DNA of 32,000 bases from an uncultured delta proteobacterium (GTDB taxonomy: Bacteria > Desulfobacterota > RBG-13-43-22), in assembly GCA_963716045.1 (NCBI GenBank), contig CAVQSS010000014.1, forward strand, positions 29,972-61,971. The letters run 5' to 3'. Below, one piece after another: positions 7,470 through 29,087 of this stretch. The notes under the pieces were generated by a model. The model had not been told where the DNA came from. It made no database searches and was given only the letters and a program-made list of their open reading frames with translations. Numbering within the stretch: the first letter of the stretch is position 1; each line of letters starts with the position of its first letter. The translations under genes were made by a program, and so were the position numbers.

Positions 7470-7592
7470 ATCGAAAACCCTTTCAGCCAATCAACTAACT
7501 TTGGGATAAACCCTAAAATCAAAAAGGATAGCAAAGACGGCTTTAACCCCTAAACCTCCTCTGGTGTCCAAAAAGCTAAGGAGGATTTTGAG

Positions 7593-11339: not shown

Positions 11340-12168
11340 GGCGCGGCTTCAGGATAATGAGGTCGCAGGGTGCTTCCTTGAGGACTTCTTCAACCGGATT
11401 GCCTTGAAGCAGGGAGGCCAAGAGACTTCTTTCGCTGGCACCCATGATGATGAGGTCATGCCGTTTGGCGAAGGCCTCGATGGTTATATTCCTGGCGGTT
11501 CGGCCCGGCAAAAGCCTTCCCTCATGCTCGATATCCTGTTGTTTGAGGTAGTCCATGAAACGGGAAATGTCGGGTGATACCCGCTCTTCCCATTCAGGGG
11601 GGGTCAGGTGTACCTCACCGCGGAGGAATTTTTCAACCGGCTTGGGCGTATGAAAGACGAAGACCTTAGAGCCGAAGGCCTTGGCCATGGAGGCGGCAAA
11701 ATGGGCTCGCTCCGCGATACGATCGATTTTGGCTTTCAGCGGGACCAGGATCTTCCGGGGATGTACTCTCCCGTAATGGACCACCCGCATGAGCGCGACC
11801 GAACAGGGCAACTTTAGGGAGAGGCGGCGTACCACTGTGTCCGAGTAAAACCTTCTTTCCAGATCCTCCCGGCGGGTGGCGGCAAAGACGATTTCTATTC
11901 CCTCGTGTCTGACTACCGCGTCAATCTCTTTAACCGCCTCACCCTTTCGGGTGATGCTCTCGACACGAACCTCAAGTTTCTCCGCCTCAACGAAGAGCCT
12001 CTTCATGGCTTCCTGAGCTCTGTTTAAGCTCTCCTCCGGGGCGCCTTTTTCGGCGATAAAGCAGGTGTAGAACTTGGCGCGGCAGGATTTGGAGAGATGC
12101 AGGGCGCAACGCCCCGTAACCTCTGAATTGATATGTTCGTTGACGGCAACAAGGATTTTCTTATACAT
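11329..12168 (-). CDS. Tandem universal stress protein (UspA-family, two Usp domains)
   Basis: It begins MYKKILVAVNEH... and ends ...DLIIMGASERSLLASLLQGNPVEEVLKEAPCDLIILKP. A second KILVPLK start motif lies mid-protein. The 3' end overlaps the ATPase start by 11 nt, so the two are probably co-transcribed. Confidence 0.8.
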   Translation of the reverse strand: MYKKILVAVNEHINSEVTGRCALHLSKSCRAKFYTCFIAEKGAPEESLNRAQEAMKRLFVEAEKLEVRVESITRKGEAVKEIDAVVRHEGIEIVFAATRREDLERRFYSDTVVRRLSLKLPCSVALMRVVHYGRVHPRKILVPLKAKIDRIAERAHFAASMAKAFGSKVFVFHTPKPVEKFLRGEVHLTPPEWEERVSPDISRFMDYLKQQDIEHEGRLLPGRTARNITIEAFAKRHDLIIMGASERSLLASLLQGNPVEEVLKEAPCDLIILKPRHED

Positions 12169-12330
12169 TATATTATTAGTGCACTAAATTAGGGTGGATA
12201 GACAACTAGGTCGGATATTTACCCTAGGGCGACTCCTGAGAGATTCTTCCGACCCATATCGACCGTTTTATTCGAAATGAAAATTTGTGGATTACAGGAA
12301 GCTACTCGTTTCCCCAACAGATTTATTTCC

Positions 12331-12360
12331 TTGATATTTCCTGAAAATCCTCAATAATAC
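12331..12360 (+). promoter_or_regulatory. Candidate sigma70-type promoter for the HU gene
   Basis: TTGATA (12331-12336), a 17-nt spacer, then ATAATA (12354-12359), about 50 nt upstream of the ATG. This is pattern only. Confidence 0.35.
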
Positions 12361-12408
12361 TCCCACCTGATCTCAAGGATTAAATAAACCAGTAAGGAGG
12401 AATTGTCA

Positions 12409-12678
12409 ATGAACAAAGAGGATCTGGTCAGTCAAGTGGCTAAATTCGTCGCAACGAAAAAGGAAGCCGAAGCGGTGGTTGATTCAGTCTTTGGGGCGAT
12501 AGCCAAGGCATTGAAGGAGGGAGACCGGGTGAATTTGGCCGGGTTTGGAACCTTCACCGTCGTCGATAAACCTCCCCGGAAGGGACGGAACCCGAAGACG
12601 GGGGAGGAAATTGATATTGCCGCCAAGAAAGTCCCAAAGTTCAACCCCGGAAAAGGCCTGAAGGATGCCGTAAAATAG
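12409..12678 (+). CDS. hup: HU-family nucleoid-associated DNA-binding protein
   Basis: MNKEDLVSQVA...AGFGTFTVVDKPPRKGRNPKTGEEIDIAAKKVPKFNPGKGLKDAV is a canonical HU/IHF fold signature. The ATG at 12409 is 8 nt after AAGGAGG and is preferred to the track start (TTG at 12403). Confidence 0.9.
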   Translation: MNKEDLVSQVAKFVATKKEAEAVVDSVFGAIAKALKEGDRVNLAGFGTFTVVDKPPRKGRNPKTGEEIDIAAKKVPKFNPGKGLKDAVK

Positions 12679-13575: not shown

Positions 13576-13859
13576 GTTATCTCCCTTCTTTTCCCGACTG
13601 GGGAGGAGTCGGAACCACCCTCGTCCACCCACCCGGACAGTTTGCGACATAGGGATAATACTTTTTCATCGTTTATTCTCCCCTAATGCCTGGAGCGAGC
13701 AACTGATTCAATCCTCTTTATTCTAAATAAGACTTTGAATTGACAAAAAAGTTAAAAATATTCATAACGACGCCTTGCGTGCCCGGAGAAGGATAATCAG
13801 GCAAACACAAAAGCCCAAATCATGACAGCGGGTCTCAAAAAAAGCTCGTGGTGACAGCC

Positions 13860-15056
13860 TCATCCGATCAACCCTTTTACTCCTCCATTCCACTCCGCCA
13901 ACATCCGTTCGCCGATCTCCCGGAACTCGGGGTGATTGCCTATGTATGTCGAGATCATATTCTGTGTCTCCGTTACCGCCTCGGCCGACCGCTCGAAGGT
14001 GTCGGCGATCGTTCCCACCGGCAGCGACAGATAGGACACGGCAAAGCGCTCCAGCACCCTGCGCGGCCACCACTTCTTGGATCCCCCTATCGTCAGGGCG
14101 GGAACGTCTTTTTGGATATAGGCCGTCGTGGTCACCAGGTCGTAGACCGGGGCCAGGGTCACCTTGCCGAGCGGGGAGGGGTATAACACGCCGAAGTTCT
14201 TCAGGTGGCCGTCGCCGTTTCGCAGCATGACCGACAGAACCAATGTTGAAAAAAACTGCGCCCGTGCCGACAGCAGGTTGTCGCCTGAGACAAAATCCCT
14301 GATGGTCCCGGCCAGCCGCTCATAGCTCCCGGTGTATTTCTGGGCGGTCCCCAATGCCTGGAGGCTGCACATATCCTCGAAGCCGATGAAGGCCCCCTGC
14401 GGTGTAATGTCGAAACGACGCAGGATGAAGAGGCCGCCGTTGTCCGAGAGATGGAATTCCGGAACCGGCAGGCCGGCCCGTTTCGCAGCCGTCATGCAGA
14501 AAAACTCATTGGCGGCCAACTGCGGGTAATCGGTACCCCACGACTTGACGATATGGCCCGAGGACGAAAGCGTACCGCGCTCCGTGGCCTCCAGCATGAC
14601 CTTCGGCTGGATGCCTGAAATTCCGGAGCGGAGGGCATAGCGGGCCACCAGCTCCTGGAATAGCTCCCGGCTGTCCGGGTAGGTGAGCATTTCGTCGAGG
14701 GACTCGGGAGTTTCCACCGGGTGCGGCGTTTCGTCTCCGGGAAGATAGAAACGGTTTCTCCCTACCTGGTTCCCCCCGGTCACCCGCAGGATCGCCAGGT
14801 CATCCTCCCCCACCAGCTTGGCGATGGCCCGTCGGATCGTCTCCAGCAGGGCGCCTTCCGGCAGATTCATCTGAAAAATGGGGTGCAGGTCGCGGCTCAG
14901 CCAACTCGCCAGACGCACCGGCATGGTCAGGGAGACCTGGGCGTCGGCAGCGGCCTCCGGGGAGTAAGCGAATACATATTCTCGATTCGGCTCCCGGGCC
15001 AGAAGGCCGGACCGCCGGTCCGCGGCCCAGACGGCCAGTGGTGACACACCGCTCAT
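13860..15056 (-). CDS. hipA: HipA-family type II toxin (Ser/Thr kinase)
   Basis: 398 aa with N-terminal coupling-domain features (FQMNLPEG), GISGIQPKV, and a C-terminal kinase-like region (RNGDGHLKNFGVLY). The start overlaps the stop of the upstream HTH gene by 1 nt. Confidence 0.85.
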   Translation of the reverse strand: MSGVSPLAVWAADRRSGLLAREPNREYVFAYSPEAAADAQVSLTMPVRLASWLSRDLHPIFQMNLPEGALLETIRRAIAKLVGEDDLAILRVTGGNQVGRNRFYLPGDETPHPVETPESLDEMLTYPDSRELFQELVARYALRSGISGIQPKVMLEATERGTLSSSGHIVKSWGTDYPQLAANEFFCMTAAKRAGLPVPEFHLSDNGGLFILRRFDITPQGAFIGFEDMCSLQALGTAQKYTGSYERLAGTIRDFVSGDNLLSARAQFFSTLVLSVMLRNGDGHLKNFGVLYPSPLGKVTLAPVYDLVTTTAYIQKDVPALTIGGSKKWWPRRVLERFAVSYLSLPVGTIADTFERSAEAVTETQNMISTYIGNHPEFREIGERMLAEWNGGVKGLIG

Positions 15057-15863: not shown

Positions 15864-16688
15864 ATGCGCTCTAGTGAAATGGACCAACGCGGTCTGGGCA
15901 TACGGGACATGGTCCAGCATCTGACCGGAGGCCGTCCTTTTATTTTTATGATCATGGCCTATGACGACAGGTGGGAACTCTTCAAGCGGATCAGCCAGAT
16001 TGTCGCGAAGCATTTTGACCTGGCCTGCATCCGGGCCGATCATGTCAAAGGCGCCGGCTATGACCTCCTGGCCAAGATACATCTATTAATCAGCCGTTCC
16101 GAACTGGTCATAGCCGATATCAGCAAACCGAGCCCCAACGTCTATTATGAAATCGGCTACGCGGTGGGGGCCCGGAAGCAGCCCCTGCTGCTGGTTCAAA
16201 AGGGTACGGAAATCCCCACGGATTTGAAAGGCCTGGAGGTCGTGGAATACCGGTATGACCGTGACGGCAAGAAGGCCTTTGAAAAGGAATTGGTCGATCA
16301 TCTCCGACTGCGTTTGAGTTCGGAGTTGCCTCTGTTGCGGGACATGTTGGAATCGCCGGTTTCGCAACCGGCCTACATCGTCAGCAGCCCCAAATACCCA
16401 GGAAGGCATAGCCGTCTATCTGGGGCAGGTCTACGACCGGCGAACCTTTGGCGACCACCTGGGCATCCTGGGGCTGATCTCGGCCTTCGGCTCCATGTGG
16501 GGGGAAGCCAAGGGCATAGATCTAATTTCCGGGCAGCACAGCCCCCCCGACCTTCTGGACCTTCCCGCCAGCCTCTATTTAATCGGTTCCGGAAAGGTCA
16601 ACGCCCCTTCAGGGAAGATGCTGGCCCTGCTCCAGGGGGACAGAGAGCCGAACTGGCATTTTGGTCCGGCCCCGGGATATTCTTATGA
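15864..16688 (+). CDS. Nucleoside 2-deoxyribosyltransferase-like / TIR-like Rossmannoid domain protein; 5' part of a frameshifted gene
   Basis: GAGGAGG lies 9 nt before the ATG. Residues ~20-175 look coding (PFIFMIMAYDD...VIADISKPSPNVYYEIGYAVGARKQPLLLV, the NDT/TIR-clan pattern with conserved Glu). After ...AYIVSSPKYPG (about 16400) the frame becomes Arg/Gly/Pro junk while frame +1 becomes sensible. Confidence 0.55.
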   Translation: MRSSEMDQRGLGIRDMVQHLTGGRPFIFMIMAYDDRWELFKRISQIVAKHFDLACIRADHVKGAGYDLLAKIHLLISRSELVIADISKPSPNVYYEIGYAVGARKQPLLLVQKGTEIPTDLKGLEVVEYRYDRDGKKAFEKELVDHLRLRLSSELPLLRDMLESPVSQPAYIVSSPKYPGRHSRLSGAGLRPANLWRPPGHPGADLGLRLHVGGSQGHRSNFRAAQPPRPSGPSRQPLFNRFRKGQRPFREDAGPAPGGQRAELAFWSGPGIFL

Positions 16689-17070
16689 AGACAAAGATTG
16701 GCCAGTTGTTCTGTACAGGATGAAGGGCCGGAAACAGATAACAGTAAAAGGCAAACTTGAAGAAATGGGTCCGGACCGGGCCGAGGTCTGGACCCAGGAT
16801 TACGGGATTATCGTCCGGGGACCTCATCCCCGACATCCCGATCGCCTGGCGCTGATTATCGCCGGTGCCCACAGCCTGGGCACGGGAGCGGCCAGTTTGG
16901 CCGCCACCCGTTCCGTCATGATCCAAAAGATCAAGGGGAAATTACCGGAAAAAGTCCTGGAAGACAAAAAGAGGGCTTTCTGGGTACTGGTCAAAGGAAC
17001 GACCTCAGGAAAAGACCTCCTTCTCGATGAAGAGGGGGTCAGTATCGAAGAGGCCGGGGTTTATGATTGA
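16495..17070 (+). CDS. Unknown-function C-terminal domain; continuation of the preceding gene in another frame
   Basis: This frame is open from 16318 and reads sensibly from about 16400 (EGIAVYLGQVYDRRTFGDHLGILGLISAFGSMWGEAKG...). It contains ...DRLALIIAGAHSLGTGAASLAAT... and I recognise no family. Confidence 0.5.
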   Translation: MWGEAKGIDLISGQHSPPDLLDLPASLYLIGSGKVNAPSGKMLALLQGDREPNWHFGPAPGYSYEDKDWPVVLYRMKGRKQITVKGKLEEMGPDRAEVWTQDYGIIVRGPHPRHPDRLALIIAGAHSLGTGAASLAATRSVMIQKIKGKLPEKVLEDKKRAFWVLVKGTTSGKDLLLDEEGVSIEEAGVYD

Positions 17071-17931: not shown

Positions 17932-18996
17932 ATGACCCGCACGAAAATAAGACCCCTTCGGTTTTTGGTCTTGGCGATCCTTTTGATCCTGATCATATCC
18001 GGTCCATCCGGGGCCGAATCCGGGAAAGCTCTTCTCGAATTTCCACTGGAATTTCTTTTAAAGGATACTCCACCAATTCGTTGTGTCGCCTTTTCCCCGT
18101 ACGTCTCGGGATACAATCCCGATACCGGGCCTCATCCGCCCGCGGCCCTGATCGATACACTCCTGGATGGGATCCGCTTCCGGGCGGGCTTTAATTGTAT
18201 CCTGACCTATGGCTTCCTGAATGGCCTGGATTATGTCATCGATGCGGCCCACGCCCGAGGGATGAAGGTGATTGCCGGCATCTGGCTCGATACCGACCCC
18301 GCCGTGAACGCTGCTTCCATAACGGCAGGGATCGCCAAGGCCAGCCAATACCCGGAGACCATCCTCCGCCTGAGCTGCGGCGTGGAACTGAGGAACCGGC
18401 GGGGGGCGACCGTATCCGAACCGATTATCCAGGATTGTCTGGCCCGGCTCCGGAATGCGGGGGTCACCCAGCCCCTGACCAGCATCGACACCTGGTGGCA
18501 GTGGTGCAACGAGGCCTGGCCCTGCCAGCCCCGGGGCCTGGCGGCCCAGATGGACTGGATCGGCATCAATGTCTATCCCTGGTGGGAGAACAAATACTCG
18601 GGGATTTTTCCCTGCACCACGGCCGCCGAGGCGGCCGCGTTCCATCTGGCCCGGGTGGGAACGGTCCAGTCGGTGTATCCTTCAAAGACCATCTGGTTGA
18701 CCGAGTTCGGCTGGCCGGCCGGGCCGGAGGGGTATTCGGAAACGAATGCCAATACCCAGCAGACCTGCGGGGTGGCCGGGGAAGCCAACCAGCGGCTGGT
18801 GATCGAACAATCCCTGCAACAACTGGAGCAGGCCGGCATCCAGTCCGTGGTATTTGAAGCGTTTCGGGAACCCTGGAAGGTCGAAGGACAGGTGGGACCC
18901 TACTGGGGTTTTTGCGAGGGAGTCCCCCCGTACCGCTGCCGTCAAGCCTACGGGTTTACCCACCGGGTTCACCTTCCCGTCCTGTTGAGAAAATGA
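17932..18996 (+). CDS. Secreted glycoside hydrolase family 17-like beta-1,3-glucanase/transglycosylase
   Basis: It has a signal peptide. INVYPWWEN corresponds to the GH17 NxYPYF block, and IWLTEFGWPAGPEG corresponds to the nucleophile block (ETGWPS). It is preceded by AGGAGGAGAAA ATG. Confidence 0.65.
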   Translation: MTRTKIRPLRFLVLAILLILIISGPSGAESGKALLEFPLEFLLKDTPPIRCVAFSPYVSGYNPDTGPHPPAALIDTLLDGIRFRAGFNCILTYGFLNGLDYVIDAAHARGMKVIAGIWLDTDPAVNAASITAGIAKASQYPETILRLSCGVELRNRRGATVSEPIIQDCLARLRNAGVTQPLTSIDTWWQWCNEAWPCQPRGLAAQMDWIGINVYPWWENKYSGIFPCTTAAEAAAFHLARVGTVQSVYPSKTIWLTEFGWPAGPEGYSETNANTQQTCGVAGEANQRLVIEQSLQQLEQAGIQSVVFEAFREPWKVEGQVGPYWGFCEGVPPYRCRQAYGFTHRVHLPVLLRK

Positions 18997-19202: not shown

Positions 19203-19460
19203 ATGGAATTTATTCTAAAAGTATCACCAAAAGGACAAGTTGTACTTCCAAAAAAGCTCAGGGAAAGCCTGCAGGTCAAGGAACTGGTGGCCATCGAGAT
19301 CAAGGAACATACCGGTGTCGTAAAAAAGCCGATTCTTTCATCGGATAAGCTGGCCGGTTGTTTCAAAACCTATGCTTCCAGGAAAAATATCTCTTCCGAG
19401 GAGGCTATTGAAAAAGCCACGACGCTGGTTGCCCATGAAACGGCCAGGAAAAATCGTTGA
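19203..19460 (+). CDS. vapB: AbrB/SpoVT-family antitoxin (VapB-like)
   Basis: 85 aa. The N-terminal KVSPKGQVVLPKKLRESL is the swapped-hairpin AbrB/MazE motif. It overlaps the downstream PIN gene. Confidence 0.8.
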   Translation: MEFILKVSPKGQVVLPKKLRESLQVKELVAIEIKEHTGVVKKPILSSDKLAGCFKTYASRKNISSEEAIEKATTLVAHETARKNR

Positions 19461-19860
19461 TGCCAATGTCATCCTGCGGTTTTTCCTTCAGGATGACGAC
19501 GATCAGTTAATAAAGGCCAAGTCCTTCATCCAAAAGCTCGAACTGGGAAAGGCTGAAGCCCTTTTAACGGATATTGTTTTTGCCGAGGTGGTCTGGGTGA
19601 TGGGCAAGGTTTATGAAATCCCCCGTTCGGAGGTCTCCGAAAAGTTATCGAAACTCATCGATTATCGGGGGATGAAAACGGTCTTCCCCAAGGAGTTATA
19701 CACCGAAGCCCTGAAATTATATGCGAAACATTCAACCGATATCCAAGACATCCTGCTGGCCCTGCTCGCCCGACAAACCAACGCAACGATTGTCACTTTT
19801 GATAAAACCGACTTTAAAAAATTGCCTTGTGCCTATGAGGAGCCGGGAACTGCCGGATAA
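19435..19860 (+). CDS. vapC: PIN-domain ribonuclease toxin (VapC-like)
   Basis: The start is chosen at the ATG at 19435 (MKRPGKIVDANVILRFF...), which puts the first acidic PIN residue at the usual position (~9). Later acidic positions are present (FAEVVWV, DIQDILLA, VTFDKTDF). The track start at 19372 would overlap most of vapB. Confidence 0.8.
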   Translation: MKRPGKIVDANVILRFFLQDDDDQLIKAKSFIQKLELGKAEALLTDIVFAEVVWVMGKVYEIPRSEVSEKLSKLIDYRGMKTVFPKELYTEALKLYAKHSTDIQDILLALLARQTNATIVTFDKTDFKKLPCAYEEPGTAG

Positions 19861-19971: not shown

Positions 19972-20250
19972 TCACTTCGCTTCTGGATCTCGCTGCCACC
20001 GTAAATAACCCCTCCGGTAATCTGCCGTTTGGATCCCACCGCCTTGGCAAAATGATGCAGCCCCTTGGTCTAAACCTGCTTCCCCGCTCACACCCCAGCG
20101 GAGGTCGATGGCCTGAAAGCGGCATCCGCTCGCCTCACAGAGCTTCTGCAGCTCGGGAAAGACTTTCTCCTGGAGGGCGTTTCGCTCTACCTTTAGATCG
20201 CTGAATGTGGAACTGACAAAGACACGAAAGGTTAAATTGGTTTGGGCCAT
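19972..20250 (-). pseudogene. Truncated DUF4062-like N-terminal fragment (domain usually found at the N-terminus of STAND/NLR-like proteins)
   Basis: FRVFVSSTFSDLKVERNALQEKVFPELQKLCEASGCRFQAIDLRWGVSGEAGLDQ matches the DUF4062 signature (VF.SSTF.D...ER..L......IDLRWG). After about 62 aa the sequence degenerates and terminates at 92 aa. Confidence 0.55.
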
Positions 20251-20504: not shown

Positions 20505-20963
20505 CTAACTCCTCTGGCCGTGGTCTTCGGCGCAAAGGTATAAAGGAGAGTGGCTCTCCTGGCTTTTTCGGACCAACAAATCAAGATGATCCCATCCGAG
20601 ATATTCATCAAAGGCGGCCTTTCCCCACTGTAAGCACTGGAGTTCGCCGGCCATACCTGCAGGAAGACTCCCTTTACAGATAGGTAGTACCGGGATGTTA
20701 TGGGCCGTTGCGAAACCAATTTCTTGTTGAACCCATCCCTTTTTGATGGATTCCGGAGTAAAAAGCGGGAGGAAAACATGGGCATGGGCAATCGACTCTT
20801 CTATTTGATCCCGGAATCTGGTGCCCGGGATGAAGCCCTTGTCCATGATCGGTTGCAGACGATCGTCCTGATCCAAATAATTGAAGATTTCTTTGGCCAG
20901 CGTTTCATCTTTTTCATTATGGGAGTAACAGATAAAGATGCGATAAGGGTTATTGGCCTTCAT
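20505..20963 (-). CDS. Stand-alone TIR-domain protein
   Basis: MKANNPYRIFICYSHNEKDETLAKEIFNYL..., then VFLPLFTPESIKKGWVQQEIGFA with the conserved Glu of the W..(E) helix. The start at 20963 is preferred to 21026 because it fits the domain boundary, but no strong SD supports either. Confidence 0.75.
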   Translation of the reverse strand: MKANNPYRIFICYSHNEKDETLAKEIFNYLDQDDRLQPIMDKGFIPGTRFRDQIEESIAHAHVFLPLFTPESIKKGWVQQEIGFATAHNIPVLPICKGSLPAGMAGELQCLQWGKAAFDEYLGWDHLDLLVRKSQESHSPLYLCAEDHGQRS

Positions 20964-21110
20964 TGTTTCGCCTGCGGATTGGTCGGGGATAAGTGAATGC
21001 GGGAATCGGTAATGGTGATTCCCCATGCTTTACCAGGGCCGTGGTCCGGATAGATCCAGAACTTGCCCACCCGGGTCAAAGTGGAGGTCGTTGTGGGGGA
21101 GAGGGTAATT

Positions 21111-21593
21111 TCATTCATAAGGATAAAGCCTTTCCAATTCGTCAATGGTAACGGGCTGATTGCCATGATAAACCTGGAGAAAGCAAACCTGGCCATTTGG
21201 CTGGGTAAGAATAGCCTGCCCGTCGGATTTCAGAAGACAGGCCTCGCATTTCGACTCTCCATGCCAGAAGACCCTTCGGGAGTACAACCCCTTAAAAATA
21301 GTCAGATATCCACCTTTTTCACTTGAATGAAATAAAGTCCGCGAAACATTTAGTTTTCCTGCAATGGCTGTGCGGAGTACCGGAAATCTGTGGAGGGCAT
21401 CCTCAAGAGTATAGGAATTGATAGCCCGTCCCTCCCGGTCCCAGAGTCGCAGCAGCGTAGCGTCATCTGACCAGGAGAGGAACCGGTCGTCTTTGGTTTC
21501 CAGGGCACATAGGACCGAGTCCGTATGTCCTTCAAGGACGGCCGGGGGCGTCCCTCCCGGTCCCACAGCCGCAGCGTATGGTCTCCTGACCAA
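21111..21593 (-). CDS. Last WD40-like unit plus a unique ~105-aa C-terminal tail of the NLR-like gene (separate ORF only because of indels)
   Basis: It reads sensibly from AVLEGHTDSVLCALETKDDRFLSWSDDATLLRLWDREGRAINSY... to the stop at 21111. The first ~17 codons of the track ORF are out-of-frame repeat sequence. Confidence 0.6.
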   Translation of the reverse strand: MVRRPYAAAVGPGGTPPAVLEGHTDSVLCALETKDDRFLSWSDDATLLRLWDREGRAINSYTLEDALHRFPVLRTAIAGKLNVSRTLFHSSEKGGYLTIFKGLYSRRVFWHGESKCEACLLKSDGQAILTQPNGQVCFLQVYHGNQPVTIDELERLYPYE

Positions 21594-23225
21594 GAGAGGA
21601 AACGGCCGTCTTTGGTTTCCAGGACACCTCGGACCGAGTGCTTATGTCCTTCAAGGACGGCCTGGGGGCGTCCCTCCCGGTCCCACAGCCGCAGCGAGTC
21701 TCCTGACCAAGAGAGGAAACGGCCGTCCTTGGTTTCCAGGGCACCTTGGACAAATAGTCCTTATGTCCTTCAAGGACGGCCTGGGGGCGTCCCTCTCGGT
21801 CCCACAGGCGCAGCGTAGGGTCTCCCCAAGAGAGGAAACGGCCGTCTTTGGTTTCCAGGGCACCTCGGACCAAGTACGTATGTCCTTCAAGGACGGCCTG
21901 GGGGCGTCCCTCCCGGTCCCACAGGCGAAGCGTATAGTCATTTGACCAGGATGACCAGGAGAGGAAACGGCCGTCTTTGGTTTCCAGGGCACCTCGGACC
22001 AAGTCCGTATGTCCTTCAAGGACGGCCTGGGGGCGTCCCTCCCGGTCCCACAGGCGAAGCGTACGGTCTCCTGACCAAGAGAGCAAACGGCCGTCTTTGA
22101 TTTCCAGGGCACCTTGGACCGAGTCCGTATGTCCTTCAAGGACGGCCTGGGGGCGTCCCTCCCGGTCCCACAGGCGAAGCGTACGGTCTCCTGACCAAGA
22201 GAGCAAACGGTCGTCTTTGGTTTCCAGGGCACCTTGGACCAAGTTCGTATGTCCTTCAAGGACGGCCTGGGGGCGTCCCTCCCGGTCCCACAGACGCAGC
22301 GTACGGTCTCCTGACCAAGAGAGGAAACAGCCGTCTTTGGCTTCCAGGGCACCTTGGACCAAGTTCGTATGTCCTTCAAGGACGGCCTGGGGGCGTCCCT
22401 CCCGGTCCCACAGGCGCAGCGTATGGTCTCCTGACCAAGAGAGGAAACGGCCGTCTTTGGTTTCCAGGGCACCTCGGACCAAGTTCGTATGTCCTTCAAG
22501 GACGGCCTGGGGGCGTCCCTCCCGGTCCCACAGGCGCAGCGTAGGTCTCCTGACCAAGAGAGGAAACGGCCGTCTTTGGTTTCCAGGGCACCTTGGACCA
22601 AGTTCGTATGTCCTTCAAGGACGGCCTGGGGGCGTCCCTCCCGGTTCCACAGGCGCAGCGTATGTCATTTGACCAGGAGAGGAAACGGCCGTCTTTGGTT
22701 TCCAGGGCACCTTGGACCAAGTTCGTATGTCCCTCAAGTACGGCCTGGGGGCGTCCCTCCCGGTCCCACAGGCGCAGCGAGTCTCCTGACCAAGATAGGA
22801 AACGGCCGTCTTTGGTTTCCAGGGCGCCAATGACCGATTTCTTATGTCCTTCAAGGACGGCCTGGGGGCGTCCCTCCCGGTCCCAGAACCGCAGCGTATG
22901 GTCTCCTGACCAAGAGAGGAAACGGCCGTCTTTGGTTTCCAGGGCGCCAATGGACCGACTTCTTATGTCCCTCAAGGACGGCCTGGGGGCGTCCCTCCCG
23001 GTCCCAGAGCCGCAGCGTAGCGTCATTTGACCAGGAGAGAAACGGCCGTCCCTGGTTTCCAGGACGCCATGGACCCGATCCGTATGTCCATTAAGTACGA
23101 CCTGGGGGCGTCCCTCCCGGTCCCACAGGCGCAGCGTATGGTCTCCTGACCAAGAGAGGAAACGGCCGTCTTTGGTTTCCAGGGCACCTTGGACCAAGTT
23201 CGTATGTCCTTCAAGGACGGCCAGA
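21424..23225 (-). repeat. Tandem array of 15 WD40-like coding units (consensus 120 bp / 40 aa: LEGHTNLVQGALETKDGRFLSWSGDHTLRLWDREGRPQAV)
   Basis: The anchor aacggccgtc recurs at 21601, 21718, 21837, 21966, 22086, 22206, 22326 (variant), 22446, 22565, 22684, 22801, 22921, 23041 and 23161, plus a divergent copy near 21481. Spacings are mostly 120 nt (also 117, 119 and 129). Confidence 0.9.
21532..22557 (-). CDS. WD40-repeat segment of the NLR-like gene (internal ORF created by frameshifts)
   Basis: It translates as 6-7 consecutive canonical units (TLRLWDREGRPQAVLEGHTNLVRGALETKDGRFLSWSGD...) before leaving frame near 21750. Confidence 0.6.
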   Translation of the reverse strand: MVRRPTLRLWDREGRPQAVLEGHTNLVRGALETKDGRFLSWSGDHTLRLWDREGRPQAVLEGHTNLVQGALEAKDGCFLSWSGDRTLRLWDREGRPQAVLEGHTNLVQGALETKDDRLLSWSGDRTLRLWDREGRPQAVLEGHTDSVQGALEIKDGRLLSWSGDRTLRLWDREGRPQAVLEGHTDLVRGALETKDGRFLSWSSWSNDYTLRLWDREGRPQAVLEGHTYLVRGALETKDGRFLSWGDPTLRLWDREGRPQAVLEGHKDYLSKVPWKPRTAVSSLGQETRCGCGTGRDAPRPSLKDISTRSEVSWKPKTAVSSLGQETIRCGCGTGRDAPGRP

Positions 23226-25369
23226 CAGGGATTTTTTCCGGCATGCGGCACTCGTTGAACTCGGCGCAGCCATGACCAGTCACATCTCCCTTCCTCGAGC
23301 CACTTTTCGGCGCCCATGGTCAGTGGGCTGTCATCGGCGTGTTCGATGGCGAGTTGAATCAGGATCATATAGGCCGGCCATTCGGGGTTGCCCCGGCTGA
23401 CGATATGGGCCTTTTCCCGAAAAAATGCAGCCTCCAGATCCAGGGTTCTATCTACATCGAACAAAGAGATCGGAAGTTCCCGTAAATCTTTTAAAAGCCT
23501 TTCGAGCATACCTCGGCGGGTCTTTTCCATCAGGTAACGAAAATCTTTCAGGAGAAGGGCCAGCCTTGGGTAATCTTCGATCACCCGCAGGTGGGACGGC
23601 AGCCACTCAATAAAATAGTCCTCCATGGTTTCCGGCCCGGCTTCGTATTGCGACCAGCCATCATCAACGAGCAGCTTATGGCCGTGGGCCGTGTCGATGT
23701 AGTAGGGATAAGCGCTCTGGTTGACCGTGATCCAATCACGGATGGTCCCGTGGAAGGGCCGGATGGTATCATTGTCACTCTCCCCGCTGGCGGGAAACAG
23801 GGAGCCGAGGCGGTTGAGCCGGCGGAACAGGTCGGTTTTGCTTTCAAGCCCCCGGGACCTTTGGAGATAGCCCAGGGTCAGGGGCTCGAAGGAGGCCAGG
23901 ATAAGGTAGAGTAAGGGGGTGATTTCCTCCTCATAGTAGGTAAGGTCAGCGGCAAACTGGCGATCAAAAAAATGTTTGTATACGTCGCCCAGGCCCCGGG
24001 GGAATTCATCCGGATGGATCAAGCGGAGGCGACCGTTCCGGACCTCCTCGTAAACATAACGAATATACAGAAAGATACCTTCACTGCGGTCGATGAGGAT
24101 TTGAGTCAGCTCCGAGGTAATATCCGGGAACTGGGACCGAAGGAATTTACGGATATCTTCCAGGTTTTCCGCCCGGGAGGCGTCCAGGACATAAGGAGAA
24201 AGGGCCTGGAAGGAGGAGCGTATTTCCGGCTCCGGCCGGGAGGTGACCAGAAAACGCAGCCAGTGAGGCGTCTTGGGGGCGCAGAAGGTCAGGAACCGAA
24301 CGATTTCGTTCTGCCGCCGGTAGGTGGCCTCATCCAGGGCATCGATCAATATGACAATAGGGCGGTCCGGCTCCGGAAAATTGGGCGCCAGAGGTTGGAC
24401 AATTAATTTGTCAAAAAGGGTATACGCCTCGTGGAATTCCTGGACGATGGTTTCAAGGGGAAGCCTGGCCAGGCAGTCTAAGTAGTCGGGAAGCTGGGTG
24501 GAAAGCTGGTAGGCGATTGAAAGGACCAGCCGGGAAGGATCCCGCTTCTCCTCGCTGTTAACGTCGCAGAAATGAAAAGCGGCGATCTCCCTTCGGTGGT
24601 CGCGGATCCAGGCGGCCATGGCGCTCTTGCCGACCCCCGGGGCCCCGGTGATCCAGAAGATCCTTTTTCCGGAGGGGTCCTTCAACCAGGCATCGACTTC
24701 CTCGAACACCCACCGGCGGCCGGTGAAGTCCCGCAGAAGTCTGATGATGTCGGCGGAAAACTGGATGGGGCTGAGCACGCTCAGGAGGCGGCTTTGGGTG
24801 CCTTCAAAGTCCAGTTGTTTATCCTCGATGGCCCGGAGCAGGCGTTCGAAGAGGGGCTTATAGAAGGCCTCATTCTCGTTGATGGGGAGGCACTCCCGCA
24901 TATCCAGCCACTGGATGCGACAGATGGAAAGCGGGGGTTCGCTCTCGACAACCATCAGCGGGATGATGGAAAGCCCACGGGATAGGGCCCGGGCCACTTC
25001 GTTGAGGCAGTAACCATCCGGGCGGCGGACGGCGTGGGGGGTGAGGAGAAGCAGGACGGCGCTATTCGGAGGATCCTGGGTCAGGTCATCCAGGCCCTGC
25101 TCGATGAAGGCCTCCCAGTCATGGCCGGGCTGGAGCCGTTCCTCATCGAACCAGACCGTATGGCCCCTATCCTTCAGGTCGTCTTTGAGTCGAACGGCCA
25201 GCAAACTGTGCTCGTCGTGACCGTAGCTGATGAATAGGCGTCTGGGGATGAAAGGCTTTCCTATGAAAAACTCATGACGGCAGTCCGCACACAGATAAAG
25301 TTCCCGCTTCCTGCTGAAAACGACACTATCCGAATTGCAATGGGGACAGAAAGGTTTGTTGACGGCCAA
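22496..25369 (-). CDS. Zn-ribbon - TIR - NACHT/STAND NTPase - WD40 NLR-like protein (5' portion in one continuous frame)
   Basis: TTG start at 25369, 4 nt after GGAGGAGGGG. Motifs in order: CPHCNSDS...CADCRHEF zinc ribbon; TIR (RRLFISYGHDEHS...YCLNEVARAL); P-loop FWITGAPGVGKSAMAAW; Walker B VILIDALDEA; then WD40-like units from LAVLEGHTNLV. The true gene evidently continues to 21111. Confidence 0.85.
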   Translation of the reverse strand: MAVNKPFCPHCNSDSVVFSRKRELYLCADCRHEFFIGKPFIPRRLFISYGHDEHSLLAVRLKDDLKDRGHTVWFDEERLQPGHDWEAFIEQGLDDLTQDPPNSAVLLLLTPHAVRRPDGYCLNEVARALSRGLSIIPLMVVESEPPLSICRIQWLDMRECLPINENEAFYKPLFERLLRAIEDKQLDFEGTQSRLLSVLSPIQFSADIIRLLRDFTGRRWVFEEVDAWLKDPSGKRIFWITGAPGVGKSAMAAWIRDHRREIAAFHFCDVNSEEKRDPSRLVLSIAYQLSTQLPDYLDCLARLPLETIVQEFHEAYTLFDKLIVQPLAPNFPEPDRPIVILIDALDEATYRRQNEIVRFLTFCAPKTPHWLRFLVTSRPEPEIRSSFQALSPYVLDASRAENLEDIRKFLRSQFPDITSELTQILIDRSEGIFLYIRYVYEEVRNGRLRLIHPDEFPRGLGDVYKHFFDRQFAADLTYYEEEITPLLYLILASFEPLTLGYLQRSRGLESKTDLFRRLNRLGSLFPASGESDNDTIRPFHGTIRDWITVNQSAYPYYIDTAHGHKLLVDDGWSQYEAGPETMEDYFIEWLPSHLRVIEDYPRLALLLKDFRYLMEKTRRGMLERLLKDLRELPISLFDVDRTLDLEAAFFREKAHIVSRGNPEWPAYMILIQLAIEHADDSPLTMGAEKWLEEGRCDWSWLRRVQRVPHAGKNPCLAVLEGHTNLVQGALETKDGRFLSWSGDHTLRLWDREGRPQVVLNGHTDRVHGVLETRDGRFSPGQMTLRCGSGTGRDAPRPSLRDIRSRSIGALETKDGRFLSWSGDHTLRFWDREGRPQAVLEGHKKSVIGALETKDGRFLSWSGDSLRLWDREGRPQAVLEGHTNLVQGALETKDGRFLSWSNDIRCACGTGRDAPRPSLKDIRTWSKVPWKPKTAVSSLGQETYAAPVGPGGTPPGRP

Positions 25370-25396
25370 ATTTCCCCTCCTCCGGTAATTTCATTT

Positions 25397-25425
25397 TTAC
25401 TACCAGGATTGCCGTTTCTTTTCAA
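25397..25425 (-). promoter_or_regulatory. Possible own promoter of the NLR-like gene
   Basis: On the minus strand: TTGAAA (25425-25420), a 17-nt spacer, then TAGTAA (25402-25397), within the 126-nt gap upstream of the TTG start. The -10 is weak and this is pattern only. Confidence 0.25.
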
Positions 25426-25495
25426 GCGGATGTTTAGCCCGAACCATCCTATCGACATAAGTTGAAATGGAACCCCCACCATGAAGATGCGGTTT

Positions 25496-25783
25496 TTAGC
25501 GGGAAGCGGGGCGATTTATATTCCGGGAGCAGGCCCTAAGGGGAAATTCAATCCTAATAACCTGTCTGGGATACCAGGAGTAGCAGCGGTGTCCCAGGTA
25601 GATCACCTCTCCGGCTAATATCTTCCAATAAAGCGGCGGGTCGAAGCCCACCGTTCCGCAGATGGTGGGGACCAGGCGGATGCCGAAGATATCCCCGGAC
25701 ACAATCCAGACCCGGGGACAAACAAAAATGATCAGGAGATAAAAGATACCGACCCGGACGAGGATTTTCCCAAAGATGTTCAT
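25496..25783 (-). CDS. Small (95 aa) hypothetical protein with an N-terminal TM helix
   Basis: The ATG at 25783 overlaps the TGA of the upstream ORF (ATGA), suggesting translational coupling. ILVRVGIFYLLIIFVCPRVWIV is a TM segment. I recognise no family. Confidence 0.45.
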   Translation of the reverse strand: MNIFGKILVRVGIFYLLIIFVCPRVWIVSGDIFGIRLVPTICGTVGFDPPLYWKILAGEVIYLGHRCYSWYPRQVIRIEFPLRACSRNINRPASR

Positions 25784-26046
25784 CGGGGCTTTTTACTCCG
25801 GGCACTCTCCGGCCGAGTAAACCCCCAAAAACCGACTTCCGTCTTTTTCGAACCTATCCCCGGTTGAGCGACATCCAGGATTCCCTGAATCACCTCCCGC
25901 GCCTCAGACTCCAATTTCCCGGCCGCTTCCCGCAGGACCTCCAGATCGTTCAGACGTTTGGCCACCAGATGGAGCCTGGAAACATTGGCCTGGATGATGT
26001 TTTTCAACGGAAGCCACAAAGACTGGCCGCCCCAGGGGACTTCCAC
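25780..26046 (-). CDS. 3' part of the orphan gene downstream of the vWA gene (different frame from its 5' part)
   Basis: This frame is open upstream to at least 26139 and reads sensibly from about 26090 (GPGSLYRRLLKAYRCFLAVEVPWGGQSLWLPLKNIIQANVSRLHLVAKRLNDLEVLREAAGKLESEAREVIQGILDVAQ...). Confidence 0.5.
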   Translation of the reverse strand: MEVPWGGQSLWLPLKNIIQANVSRLHLVAKRLNDLEVLREAAGKLESEAREVIQGILDVAQPGIGSKKTEVGFWGFTRPESARSKKPR

Positions 26047-26953
26047 GGCGAGGAAACAGCGATAGGCCTTCAGGAGGCGCCGGTACAGGGATCCGGGCCC
26101 GCTGCGGCAACTCGTTGAGTCGGTCCCCTTCCAGTTGAATCAGCAGTTCCAGGAACGCATTGATGGGAGGTTGCGGATAAACGTCTCCAAAAAAACGCAG
26201 CAGCTCCTCGTTCACGGCGTTGCGCAGGTCACACAACTTCCCGTCCAGGCATAAATAGAGCAGTTCGATGGCGTTTTGAAATTGAACCAATCCGATCTGC
26301 CCGGCTGTCTGGACCGCCAACCGTTGATCGTCATGCCAGGCGGCCTGAAAAACCCGCCGGCCCAGCTCAAAAAGCAAATCATCCATTTCCCGGATCGTCG
26401 GGGTACCCGGGGTCCCGCCCCTTTTGCCTACCTGTTCCCGAAACTGGGAAAGGCGTAGAAAATAGCCTTCGTGCCCCTGATGCATCAACTTGACAAACCG
26501 GATATCCGGGGCCGGATACCCGGAGCTTTGATAGACATCGTCCACGACCAGGCTGTATTCTGAAAAAAAGTCTTTCCGGACCCGATATAGATAATAAACG
26601 GGCAGGCCGCTGGAACGCTGGCGCACATCCAGATAGAGAAAGGGGTCCAGGTCATAGAGAACCCTTCTCAGCGTTTCCCGGTTCACCAGGCATACCTTTT
26701 CTTTTTCGAACGGGGTCTCGAGGACGATGTCTTGCGCCAGGGTCTCGGTCAGCCGCCGAAGATCCCGGATGGTCCAGAGGGATTGTTCCATCTTCACTCT
26801 CAACCGGTCGTAGTTTCGGAGGTGGTCGATAAAAGGCTCCAGTGCCCGGTACAGATCCTGATCCGTAACGTACGTCACCCGGGGAGCGACGTACGGATAG
26901 GTATCGGCGTAAAAACCGTGATAGGGAGAACCGTATTGGTAGTGGTAAGCCAT
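25904..26953 (-). CDS. Orphan protein with a Tyr-rich N-terminus (5' part; about 390 aa if joined to 25780..26046)
   Basis: The ATG at 26953 (MAYHYQYGSPYHGFYADTYPYVAPRVTYV...) lies 14 nt after the vWA stop and is preceded by AAAGGGGAAG. The sequence is sensible up to ...LIQLEGDRLNELPQ, then becomes Pro/Gly/Arg junk. I recognise no domain. Confidence 0.55.
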   Translation of the reverse strand: MAYHYQYGSPYHGFYADTYPYVAPRVTYVTDQDLYRALEPFIDHLRNYDRLRVKMEQSLWTIRDLRRLTETLAQDIVLETPFEKEKVCLVNRETLRRVLYDLDPFLYLDVRQRSSGLPVYYLYRVRKDFFSEYSLVVDDVYQSSGYPAPDIRFVKLMHQGHEGYFLRLSQFREQVGKRGGTPGTPTIREMDDLLFELGRRVFQAAWHDDQRLAVQTAGQIGLVQFQNAIELLYLCLDGKLCDLRNAVNEELLRFFGDVYPQPPINAFLELLIQLEGDRLNELPQRARIPVPAPPEGLSLFPRRGSPLGRPVFVASVEKHHPGQCFQAPSGGQTSERSGGPAGSGREIGV

Positions 26954-26969
26954 AATCTTCCCCTTTCGG

Positions 26970-29087
26970 CTATCGTTTGGCCACCAGCCGGCTTCGTTCC
27001 TTGATGCAGGAAGCCACGTACAGGCCGATCTTCTCGGCCACGGCCCCATAGTTCTCCAACTCCGGTCCGGAAACGGTGATCACCCGGTCAAGCAGATCCT
27101 CAAACCCCGTCTCCCCCGACACCCCGAGGGCCACCAGGGTCGTATGGAGCTTGTGGGATTTGGATTCATAAAGGCCGCGAAACAATTCCTGGACTTCCTG
27201 CCTGCCGTCGCGATCAGTCCGGAAACTCCGATTCCAGGCAGTATCGGATAAGACAATGAGATAGATCATGTCCCCCCGGGCCAGGCGCCCGGCCTCCTCC
27301 AGAATAAAGGCCAGGGAGAGGGCATCCGACTGCACTCCCGTCCCGCTGGCGGGCAGGGACACCAGGGCGCGGACCGCGTCCAGCCGGCTGGCCGCCGGCG
27401 TCTTTTCCGGGTGATAGAGCCACTGGACCAGGGGACCACTGAGGCCCTTCCGGATTTGCCCGCTGTGATACAGTGCCGCCAGGAATTGGATCTGAGTCCG
27501 GGAGGTGGAATTAGCCTCGGCCGCACACAATATCTTGACCATTTTCATTTGATTTTGATTCAGTGACCCGGAGCCGTCACAGGCGACGACCAGTACCGGC
27601 CGGCCCCGGGGATCGGCCCGTTCTTCGAGGCGATAGCGGCGGTAAATGGTCGAGGAGAAGCCCGCCAGGGCCAGCCGGGCCGGATCGATGGACCCACTGG
27701 TTCGGAGCCGCTGGGTTTCCGGTATCTGATCCACGCTGGGATATAAATTTCTCCTTAAGGCTTCGGTGATGGGTTGGGCGGCCCTCAAGAGATCTTCACA
27801 GGCAGCGGGATTGTGAGCCGGTTCTACGGGTCGGTCATAGATTTCCCCGGCGGCGGGCTGCCCTCCCAAAGAAATCGTTACTTCGTGGCCATCCGCCGGA
27901 TGGCCTTCAATGAGGCCTCCCTGAAAGGGAGACGCCGCCAAAGACTTCTCCACCAGATCCGAACGCATGTCCTCCCACTGGCGGTCCTGTCCGCCGGCCT
28001 GGGCCAGGGCCTCCGAAAAACGGTTCAGGGTCTTTTTGAAATCCTCCATCAGCGGATCGGCCTCGGGCTGGGCTTTCCCACCGGCTTCGAGCGGTTCCAG
28101 GGCCTTGAAAGCGGCGTTGATGAAGGCATCCTTGGCCGTGGCCGTTTCGAACAGAGCCGGCGCCTGAAGTCCTTCCAGCGGCGCGAAATCCCCGCTCTCG
28201 ATAAACCCCATGAGATTTCTATGGAAGCGGTACCCCGTTGGGTTGAATTTTTTTCCGGTATCAGCGGAGGACCCGCCGATGCTATCAGGGTCCGCTGTCG
28301 CCGGCGACGGCAAGTAGACGGCCAGCCCTCGGCAGACGACCCGCACCCAAGAGCTACCCAAGGAAAGCATCTGCGGCCCTCGGGAATGGCCGATCTTAAC
28401 CAGGAATGGAGCGGAGAGATCGTACAATTCCTGCAGCAAGATTCGGGTAAAGGGATGGAGCTCCAAATCCCGCCAGTCGGGAAGAAGGTCCCCGAAAAGG
28501 ATGACCGCCCTCAGGATCTCCGGGAGATAGCGGAATTGCAGGCTCTGCTGGGAGGCGGAAAACAGCCGGTAGGCCTCTACTGCCTTCAGGGATTCCGTCT
28601 GCACCAGGTCTTCCAACAACAGTCGCTTATGGACCAGTTCGGCCACGGTTTTACAAAGTTTTCTATAAATATCCGGATCCACCTCGACCTCATCGAAGGC
28701 CCCCGGGTTTTCCAGGTATTCTTTGAGGTCCGCGACCAGCGACTTCTGCGGCACCCGGGCTTCGTATTCCAAAAAAGCGGTTTGCCCGATGGCGGCCACG
28801 GCGGCCGGTGTGGCCGGATAGGTGGTATAACACGGCCCCAGTTGCGGTTTGACCTTGGGTTGGAAATCGGATTCCCGCTCGCCGCAGAGTCGGGCCACCT
28901 TTTTCTGGATCTTTTGCACTTCCCGGTAAAACAGGCGCAGGGCCGGCAGCCGGTCGGGGTAGTCCAGGCTGCTTTTAAAGGCATCGCCCAGACTGGTTCC
29001 GGCCCAGTTCGATTTCAACCTTTTTTCATAAGAAGGATAGGAGTACCCTTCCCAGGTTGTTTTCTTTTGACGGCTTTCTCCGTTCAT
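26970..29087 (-). CDS. vWA-domain protein of the NorD/CbbO/CobT-like class (long N-terminal region plus a C-terminal MIDAS-containing vWA)
   Basis: The ATG at 29087 (MNGESRQ...) follows GGGAGG. The C-terminal third shows SGSIDPARLALAGFSSTIYRRYRLEE...RPVLVVACDGSGSL (DxSxS MIDAS), later SGTGVQSDAL and IVLSDTAWN. This matches the layout of AAA-partner vWA proteins. Confidence 0.8.
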   Translation of the reverse strand: MNGESRQKKTTWEGYSYPSYEKRLKSNWAGTSLGDAFKSSLDYPDRLPALRLFYREVQKIQKKVARLCGERESDFQPKVKPQLGPCYTTYPATPAAVAAIGQTAFLEYEARVPQKSLVADLKEYLENPGAFDEVEVDPDIYRKLCKTVAELVHKRLLLEDLVQTESLKAVEAYRLFSASQQSLQFRYLPEILRAVILFGDLLPDWRDLELHPFTRILLQELYDLSAPFLVKIGHSRGPQMLSLGSSWVRVVCRGLAVYLPSPATADPDSIGGSSADTGKKFNPTGYRFHRNLMGFIESGDFAPLEGLQAPALFETATAKDAFINAAFKALEPLEAGGKAQPEADPLMEDFKKTLNRFSEALAQAGGQDRQWEDMRSDLVEKSLAASPFQGGLIEGHPADGHEVTISLGGQPAAGEIYDRPVEPAHNPAACEDLLRAAQPITEALRRNLYPSVDQIPETQRLRTSGSIDPARLALAGFSSTIYRRYRLEERADPRGRPVLVVACDGSGSLNQNQMKMVKILCAAEANSTSRTQIQFLAALYHSGQIRKGLSGPLVQWLYHPEKTPAASRLDAVRALVSLPASGTGVQSDALSLAFILEEAGRLARGDMIYLIVLSDTAWNRSFRTDRDGRQEVQELFRGLYESKSHKLHTTLVALGVSGETGFEDLLDRVITVSGPELENYGAVAEKIGLYVASCIKERSRLVAKR

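Follow-up and report, generated by a model that had tools for sequence, protein, structure and literature searches.

The 32,000-nucleotide stretch of contig CAVQSS010000014.1 analysed here (the window) carries on its minus strand an NLR-like STAND gene that ends in a tandem array of 15 near-identical WD40 units. We consider this array to be, with good probability, the ligand-sensing C-terminal domain of the encoded receptor, diversified at the top face of its propellers. Its blades are WRAP-type, highly repetitive WD40 units of high internal conservation (HIC), WRAP standing for WD40-family recently amplified propeller. The scaffold, comprising strands A-D and the H-S-D-W tetrad, is near-identical from blade to blade, and six positions per blade vary with a ratio of nonsynonymous to synonymous substitution (dN/dS, omega) above 1: three before strand A, the R1 bulge residue, and the residue on either side of the Asp in the B-C turn. 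In the assembly, six 1-nt indels break up the array, and the sequence as written encodes no full-length receptor.

The phenomenon as such is already described for NLRs of bacteria and fungi (PMC1805685, PMC5587647), as an earlier reading of the letters of this DNA (the sequence-only reading) had stated. What the present locus adds is codon-level diversifying selection at canonical hotspots in a bacterial array, the non-random placement of the frameshifts, and a cassette-like presence/absence of the gene between close relatives; no report of codon-level dN/dS for a bacterial NLR array was found in the literature searched. The locus provides a clean, quantifiable bacterial case of the NLR repeat regime known first from fungi, in which a homogenised scaffold bears positively selected top-face residues.

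A tandem array of near-identical WD40 units

Tandem Repeats Finder (TRF) returns a single strong tandem array, at 21427-23222, with a period of 120, 14.9 copies, 89% matches and a score of 2722. Anchoring on the EGH codons in the coding sense, which is the minus strand, resolves 15 head-to-tail units (u1-u15) of ~120 nt and ~90% nucleotide identity, in keeping with the extreme internal identity that the sequence-only reading had pointed out for 15 units. The translated units follow the pattern EGH-x-x-x-V-x-GALETKDGRFLSWS-x-D-x-TLRLWDREGRPQAVL. The in-frame open reading frame (ORF) 21532-22557 matches the WD40 family PF00400 of Pfam at 93.9 bits against a cut-off of 27, and the GH and WD motifs are present in 15/15 units. 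H3, S20/S22, D24 and W30 are invariant across the units, apart from S22, which is deleted in u12; the tetrad (H / S-T / D / W) is kept.

Variation and selection among the units

A 40-column codon alignment of the 15 units was analysed by per-column entropy and by the Nei-Gojobori method for dN/dS. Entropy amounts to 0.84, 1.97, 1.23, 1.93, 1.05 and 2.12 bits at columns 4, 5, 6, 8, 23 and 25, respectively, and to 0.70 or less at all others, with the LRLWDREGRPQAVLEGH segment remaining almost unchanged across units. These six hot columns, which make up 15% of the 40, hold 59% of the amino-acid differences between pairs of units, against the 15% that an even spread would give. Two of the clusters proposed in the sequence-only reading, the substitutions right after GH (T/K, N/D/K/Y/H, L/S/R, an invariant V, then Q/R/H/I/L) and the S-[G/N/D]-D-[H/R/A/Y/P]-T turn of columns 23 and 25, are recovered with entropies of up to 2.12 bits, as is the near-invariance of LRLWDREGRPQAVLEGH. 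A third, LE-T/A/I-K/R-D-G/D-R/C-F/L, falls away: its changes are singletons or doubletons with an entropy of 0.35-0.70, and they are situated in the A-B loop, on the opposite face.

In the hot columns, dN is 0.50 and dS 0.149, giving an omega of 3.37, while the remaining 34 columns show a dN of 0.034, a dS of 0.146 and an omega of 0.23. Counted as variant types, nonsynonymous and synonymous changes stand at 17:2 in the hot columns versus 14:14 elsewhere (Fisher p = 0.006). The equality of dS between hot and cold columns speaks for selection and not for a mutation rate that is higher locally. A hand count of singleton substitutions in the cold columns yields 10 nonsynonymous and 7 synonymous changes, which are too few to discriminate neutrality of recent changes.

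Predicted position of the variable residues

The repaired WD region was modelled from its single sequence with AlphaFold2 (pLDDT ~75-90 across the blades), and faces were assigned from the DSSP strand map in combination with blade topology. In the model, strand A covers columns 7-12, B columns 18-22, C columns 27-30 and D columns 36-40, in 10-11 of the 11 regular units. Columns 4-6 fall in the D-A loop, column 8 is the second residue of strand A, and columns 23 and 25 are in the B-C turn. As a blade is a four-strand antiparallel meander, its D-A and B-C connections are located at the same blade end, and hence the hot columns share one end, the one that forms the top face in WD40 propellers (Wu et al. 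2012, PMC3419727). The V-R1-R2 bulge and tetrad-Asp rules (PMC3419727) identify column 8 as R1, column 6 as R1-2 and column 23 as D-1, which are the three canonical hotspots of interaction. By chance, the six hottest columns would all be found among the 12 top-end columns with a probability of 2.4e-4, and the A-B and C-D loops of the bottom face are almost unvaried. In this model, therefore, the six hypervariable positions of each blade are on the propeller top face. Per-site entropy, dN/dS and mapping onto a predicted propeller, the checks suggested with the sequence-only reading, consequently place the variable sites in a cluster at the top end rather than evenly over the unit, and the diversification of ligand-facing positions that it had supposed is borne out by the omega values and by the strand map of the model.

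Relatives and signs of concerted evolution

Within the array, amino-acid identity among units averages 84.5% (range 75-97.5). Mean nucleotide identity is 91.7% for adjacent and 90.2% for non-adjacent units; the units within 22019-22498, singled out beforehand as near-identical neighbours, do share 93-97%, but some non-adjacent pairs are equally close, u1/u6 and u1/u7 reaching 98%. Furthermore, 123/253 pairs of informative sites within the array show all four allele combinations in a four-gamete check, which indicates that the units are mosaics of one another.

The N-terminal 713 amino acids of the protein have hundreds of homologues, in which a TIR-NACHT module is followed by WD40 or TPR sensors and which derive from metagenome-assembled genomes (MAGs) spread over many phyla; the MAGs of these relatives are bacterial or archaeal. 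Apart from the gene's own protein, the nearest homologue by N-terminus is P0002, with 67% identity. This orthologue and P0012 employ another, internally uniform scaffold (...LRLWDG[QR]SGACLA[VT]L[EK]GH...), and yet their highest-entropy columns are again 5, 6, 8, 23 and 25. Compared with the units of P0002 and P0012, the units described here are 58-59% identical in amino acids, with a maximum of 68%, the N-termini of the same orthologues being 54-67% identical. The units therefore cluster by protein, which is a sign of concerted evolution or of independent amplification. Blade number differs as well, with 2 in P0003, ~6 in P0005, at least 7 in the partial P0012, and at least 10 in P0002 and its continuation. 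Taken together, the mosaicism of the units and their grouping by protein fit a process in which recombination between units homogenises and reshuffles the array; concerted evolution with unequal recombination, as the sequence-only reading had put it, agrees with these identities, with the four-gamete result and with the varying blade number.

Exact-pattern scans of metagenome contigs with a unique junction 42-mer and with an invariant repeat-core 42-mer returned no second copy of the array, and a scan of genome contigs returned distant relatives only, at 53% and 72% identity.

The locus of P0002 (L001) presents two further features. An IS66-family element (accessory ORFs and a DDE transposase) is inserted within its WD40 array at 8772-11500, and the array resumes past the element, together with the conserved C-terminal cap, at 11576-12514. 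The neighbouring NACHT-TPR gene contains a tandem array with a 120-nt period and 80-85% identity (4633-5581), presumably of TPR units that likewise exhibit high internal conservation.

Comparison with known repeat systems

By sequence and by fold, the top match is 2YMU, the WRAP of Nostoc punctiforme (Npun_R6612; phmmer E 9e-135, Foldseek E 9.4e-42). WRAP makes up the C-terminal portion of a STAND ATPase that is coupled to a TIR-bearing STAND (PMC9218822), and WRAP and WRAP-like arrays of bacterial STAND proteins have been described by Dunin-Horkawicz (2014) and by Pereira & Lupas (2022; PMC9218822), who also reported that arrays of the WRAP branch are often disrupted by frameshifts. The present array shares with WRAP the ~40-residue units, the GH...S-W-S-x-D-x-T-L-R-L-W-D scaffold, and the location of 14-15 near-identical blades C-terminal to a STAND ATPase associated with TIR. 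It departs from WRAP in that TIR, NTPase and propeller are joined in one polypeptide, where the WRAP operon has its TIR on a partner STAND; in its 15 units and divergent cap versus 14 units; and in its six clearly diversified positions per blade. The inter-unit dS of ~0.15 implies that the array is older than WRAP. Units of HIC/WRAP-like repeats are ~80-90% identical (Dyrka 2020 preprint), and the array falls within this class by its 84.5% amino-acid identity, its location C-terminal to a STAND NTPase, its top match to 2YMU and its variability at top-face hotspots.

In the fungal HET-E/HNWD repeats, codons 7, 9, 25 and 27 are positively selected and are paired around the purifying sites 8 and 26 (Paoletti 2007, PMC1805685). 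The same geometry is seen here, with columns 6 and 8 around V7 and columns 23 and 25 around D24, and the fungal HNWD/HET-E/HET-D arrays likewise display high internal conservation and units that group by genome or protein. The differences are that the present system is bacterial, has a zinc ribbon and a TIR domain versus a HET effector, is built of 40- versus 42-residue units, and has no repeat-induced point mutation; nor is a multi-paralogue exchange like that of HNWD seen here, the array being the single one in the window. In its mode of working the array resembles the fungal HNWD family, of which it is not a member. The preprint of Dyrka et al. (2020) had already proposed that bacterial NLR repeats "might similarly be under" the fungal type of regime.

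Apaf-1 structures rank high in the Foldseek search, and Apaf1-like WD40 propellers act as sensors of prokaryotic defence STANDs (PMC13581612). With these proteins the gene shares the succession of an NTPase, putative winged-helix and helical domains and ~15 WD40 blades, as well as a weak APAF1_C match; by analogy, a logic of sensing followed by oligomerisation may be common to them. In contrast to Apaf-1, its NTPase is of the NACHT/NPHP3_N type rather than NB-ARC, its effector is a TIR rather than a CARD, and its blades are near-identical rather than diverged. Finally, Hu et al. (2017, PMC5587647) found that highly repetitive prokaryotic WD40 proteins concentrate their diversity mainly at predicted top-face hotspot sites. 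The array shows the very high repeat identity and the hotspot diversity of this class, which is a survey-level category, whereas the present analysis offers codon-level dN/dS and synteny for one locus.

Proposed mode of action

By analogy with Apaf-1, Avs/bNACHT and HET-E/NWD, the top faces of the propellers would bind a foreign or altered-self ligand as their trigger, which may be, for instance, a phage protein or a host protein that carries a modification. This would lift autoinhibition and allow the NACHT module to oligomerise, whereupon the clustered N-terminal TIR domains would become active, presumably as NADases, and the outcome may be abortive infection, growth arrest or cell death. 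Recombination between near-identical units would reshuffle and resize the array, and selection would retain new hotspot combinations.

Some observations do not sit easily with such a sensor. The face assignment draws on the strand map of the model and on blade topology; the domains between NTPase and propellers match HTH_TANC1 (25.2 bits versus a cut-off of 27) and APAF1_C (18.5 versus 22.8) weakly, both under the curated cut-offs; and PADLOC reports no convincing defence family for the gene, giving only weak TIR and Avs1b (18 bits) hits.

The reading frame and its six single-base indels

The lengths of u1-u14 are 120, 119, 121, 117, 119, 119, 120, 120, 120, 120, 129, 117, 119 and 119 nt, followed by the terminal unit. 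The sequence-only reading had stated that unit length varies in frame, and this stands for u4 (117 nt, through a 3-nt deletion also found in u13), u12 (117 nt) and u11 (129 nt, through a 9-nt duplication that yields SWSSWS). It had missed the 119/121-nt units, which stem from six 1-nt indels that place the array in three frames, so that the array is not one ORF. As written, the gene consists of three overlapping ORFs (22496-25369, 21532-22557 and 21111-21593). The public protein P0001 (957 amino acids) is a frameshift-truncated product, with a 29-residue out-of-frame stretch in u2/u3 and an out-of-frame tail of ~40 residues. Repair of the six indels restores an ORF of 4263 nt and 1420 codons with zero internal stops.

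We lean slightly towards the view that the six indels are consensus or polishing errors in a near-identical tandem array rather than real mutations, in which case the gene would be intact in vivo. All six fall within the 1.79-kb array, the remaining 2.47 kb of the gene being free of them (p = 0.0055); frameshift density is 3.35 per kb in the array compared with 0.066 per kb elsewhere, and 4/6 affect hypervariable or length-variable codons (p = 0.0059). Placement at codons where the units differ is what would be expected if reads from different units had been mixed in a column-wise consensus. Indeed, some units have a 3-nt deletion where a 1-nt gap occurs, one unit has a 3-nt insertion where a net +2 is seen, and u3 reads as an out-of-register hybrid of u2 and u4 alleles. 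There is also a precedent, in that read mapping in a 2025 study of fungal HIC NLRs traced a 1-bp deletion in a WD40 repeat to long-read misassembly; the study also documented genuine stop codons (PMC12222747).

Several facts pull the other way, and it is a serious, if somewhat less probable, alternative that the frameshifts are real and that the gene, now a pseudogene, was inactivated very recently within a defence island undergoing turnover. In this case the array would record past diversifying selection, there would be no 15-blade sensor now, and the product would be at most a 957-residue TIR-NACHT protein with ~4 usable blades. The longest exact repeat inside the array is 89 nt, and 150-nt reads could therefore resolve it; moreover, Illumina consensus seldom creates indels. 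The decay of the neighbourhood is not explicable as an artefact: a TIR gene nearby has suffered a 505-nt deletion, a DUF4062 gene is reduced to a 53-residue remnant, and two syntenic metagenome contigs (L004 and L005) have lost the NLR gene, apart from its last 16 codons. These two contigs, from two samples, have a frameshift of their own in common, and the array of the nearest homologue is split by IS66. At 16420 and at 26091, unique window genes carry one further 1-nt frameshift each; relatives are intact there. Frameshift-disrupted WRAP-like propellers have, furthermore, been reported from finished genomes (PMC9218822).

Against inactivation stands the distribution of the lesions, since six independent 1-nt indels would all have struck the repeat and spared 2.47 kb of the same supposedly neutral gene, with four of them at codons that differ between units. 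In addition, the repaired gene is free of stop codons, and the dN/dS of the scaffold remains at 0.23. Tandem-repeat instability, for its part, normally alters the number of units rather than single bases. Either way, repeat-rich sensor genes in MAGs need to be validated at the level of reads before being scored as intact genes or pseudogenes. As for the re-tunable recognition surface that had been suggested for this array, the signs of selection and shuffling speak for it; with the array frameshifted as assembled, it describes the recent past of the gene or, should the indels be errors, its actual state.

It is a good deal less probable, and on balance unlikely, that the frameshifts are both real and by-products of the diversification itself, with mutagenic recombination or gene conversion between blades leaving 1-nt slips at tract junctions. 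The idea draws on the 4/6 indels in codons 6-8 and 25, and on the resemblance of u3 to an out-of-register hybrid of its neighbours' alleles. If true, the mechanism that re-tunes bacterial NLR sensors would also kill them, which would explain the frequent frameshifts in WRAP-like arrays. A weaker variant holds that the dead array is retained as a reservoir of silent cassettes on which other NLR paralogues draw.

A short-read chimera, also considered, is not needed as an explanation, given the length of the longest exact internal repeat.

Drift and targeted mutagenesis as alternatives

Could the blades be a very recent amplification of one unit, their differences being due to neutral drift and no binding surface being under selection? 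The high identity between units would suit this explanation, and recent amplification is the published one for WRAP (PMC9218822). We hold it to be very improbable here: a dS of 0.146 between units means that they are not brand new, nonsynonymous change is ~15-fold higher at the six columns than at the others at equal dS, several hot codons differ by 2-3 nucleotides (e.g. GGA/AAT/GAT and CAA/ATT/CGA/CTA), and the same columns vary in the orthologues.

Targeted mutagenesis, for instance by a diversity-generating retroelement, or programmed frameshifts (phase variation or ribosomal frameshifting) can largely be set aside within this window as the least credible explanation of all. Variation is limited to few codons, AAC is the consensus codon in column 5, and indels coincide with variable codons; yet the hot codons show no excess of synonymous divergence, and the frameshift sites are neither long homopolymers nor simple repeats and are each unique to one unit.

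Two specific candidates of this kind were rejected. No reverse transcriptase domain was detected among the scanned ORFs, and no unit copy that might serve as a template repeat lies outside the array within the window, so the array was discarded as a retroelement target within this scope. Programmed frameshifting or phase variation was rejected likewise, there being no slippery, long homopolymer or simple-repeat tracts at indels that each belong to a single unit.

Gene architecture

The coordinates of the gene, its domains and its frameshifts are collected in Table 1. Pfam matches to TIR_2, NPHP3_N and WD40 bear out the bacterial STAND/NLR-like context assumed in the sequence-only reading. The NACHT model of Pfam itself scores only 19.7 bits on the NTPase region, versus a cut-off of 26.7. 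In the TIR domain, the Glu of the GYCLNEV motif (residue 124) occupies what we take to be the position of the catalytic Glu of TIR NADases. The C-terminal cap is retained at the C-termini of P0005 (E 1e-15), of the post-IS66 ORF of L001 (E 4e-13) and, by eye, of P0003.

Table 1. Features of the NLR-like gene and of the adjoining TIR gene (window positions)
Feature	Position	Strand	Basis or remark
NLR-like gene, reconstructed: Zn-ribbon-TIR-NACHT-winged helix-helical-15xWD40-C-terminal cap	21111-25369	-	1420 amino acids once six 1-nt indels are repaired
Zinc ribbon CxxC...CxxC, residues 8-30	25280-25348	-	Zn_ribbon matches below Pfam cut-offs
TIR domain, residues 46-159	24893-25234	-	TIR_2, 62 bits (cut-off 28); GYCLNEV motif at residues 119-125
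NACHT-type STAND NTPase (NPHP3_N), residues 220-378	24236-24712	-	97.7 bits (cut-off 24.8)
Walker A GAPGVGKS, residues 242-249	24623-24646	-	motif read
Walker B VILIDALDEA, residues 339-348	24326-24355	-	motif read
Winged-helix (TANC1-like) and Apaf-1-C-like helical domains, between NTPase and propellers	23309-23929	-	weak Pfam matches
WD40 array, 15 units	21423-23213	-	TRF, EGH-codon anchoring and translation
First codons of u1-u15	23212, 23092, 22973, 22852, 22735, 22616, 22497, 22377, 22257, 22137, 22017, 21888, 21771, 21652, 21533	-	
Non-repetitive C-terminal cap, ~100 amino acids, ending ...GQVCFLQVYHGNQPVTIDELERLYPYE*	21111-21422	-	conserved in relatives
Frameshift 1 (u2, -1, codon 19)	23038-23039	-	TTTCCTC to TTTCTC
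Frameshift 2 (u3, +1, hypervariable codon 8)	22952-22953	-	GGTC[C]ATTGG; regains frame lost at frameshift 1
Frameshift 3 (u5, -1, hypervariable codon 25)	22663-22664	-	AATGAC^ATACG
Frameshift 4 (u6, -1, hypervariable codon 25)	22543-22544	-	GAGACC^TACG
Frameshift 5 (u13, -1, codon 6/7)	21750-21751	-	TATTTG^TCC; adjoins 3-nt insertion
Frameshift 6 (u14, -1, codon 37)	21543-21544	-	CCCCC^GGCC
ORF fragment 1, 957 amino acids: N-terminal domains and units 1-5	22496-25369	-	identical to public protein P0001
ORF fragment 2, 341 amino acids: u6 (part) to u13 (start) in frame, then out-of-frame tail	21532-22557	-	
ORF fragment 3, 160 amino acids: u15 and native C-terminus	21111-21593	-	
Stand-alone TIR gene, 173 amino acids, 85 nt downstream of NLR-like gene, same strand	20505-21026	-	orthologue in L004 has 375 amino acids

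Genomic neighbourhood

A search that set out from an adjacent gene yielded L004 and L005, two contigs of 34.5 and 8.7 kb, respectively, from JGI metagenomes (samples 3300063055 and 3300063141). They are syntenic with the window, to which they are 90-95% identical in nucleotides to the left and right of the NLR gene. In place of window positions 21162-25499, which hold the gene and 130 nt upstream of it, they contain 741 unrelated bases with a 129-residue ORF (L004 15009-15749), and of the NLR gene L004 keeps the stop and the 16 codons before it. By this comparison, the gene is a presence/absence cassette, swapped or lost at a fixed site and most simply lost in the L004/L005 lineage. Such presence/absence between close relatives fits the rapid turnover expected of immune sensors.

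The stand-alone TIR gene at 20505-21026 has been shortened by the 505-nt deletion, at 20514/20515; the missing segment is present in L004 at 13857-14361. Further along, a 92-residue ORF (19972-20250, minus strand) with just 53 residues of DUF4062 is the remnant of a DUF4062(-STAND) gene; it is 57% identical to the DUF4062 protein beside the homologous NLR in L001, and its tail is common to a truncated AAA_14 ORF in L004.

Other genes of the region also differ in integrity between the genomes. A TIR-like gene of the CAP12/Pycsar type (15864-17070, plus strand) encodes a single protein of ~400 amino acids in >200 relatives. Compared with L004/L005, the window has one additional C at 16420 (TAT[C]TGG), which divides the gene into two overlapping ORFs; in L004/L005 the gene is truncated instead, by loss of window positions 16568-17013. 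At 25780-27049 (minus strand), a gene that forms one 390-residue ORF in L004 is broken by one additional A (position 26091, AGGG[A]TCC), the sole gap in a 5056-nt alignment to L004 at 95% identity; it belongs to a conserved cluster encoding proteins of 390 and 705-710 amino acids, a 334-residue AAA_5 protein and an AAA_2 protein. Conversely, a GH17-like gene is intact in the window (17932-18996, 354 amino acids) and is split by a 1-nt difference (window 18409) into ORFs of 236 and 173 amino acids in L004 (11659-12923) and L005; as this frameshift is common to two samples, it is real in their lineage.

Toxin-antitoxin genes flank the island, with a full-length HipA kinase at 13860-15056 (minus strand); at 19203-19860 (plus strand), a MazE/AbrB-type antitoxin gene overlaps a PIN-domain toxin gene, the latter being absent from L004/L005. 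YjbQ-like sequence of L004 (7460-7882 and 9242-9535) matches the window at both 3006-3428 and 7282-7471 with 88-94% identity, which suggests that a segment was duplicated or rearranged between these genomes. Scans of the window for Rfam families and tRNAs came back empty, and the intergenic tandem repeats at 2710-2915 are without Rfam match; these have periods of 36 nt (3.3 copies) and 25/21 nt (~3 copies).

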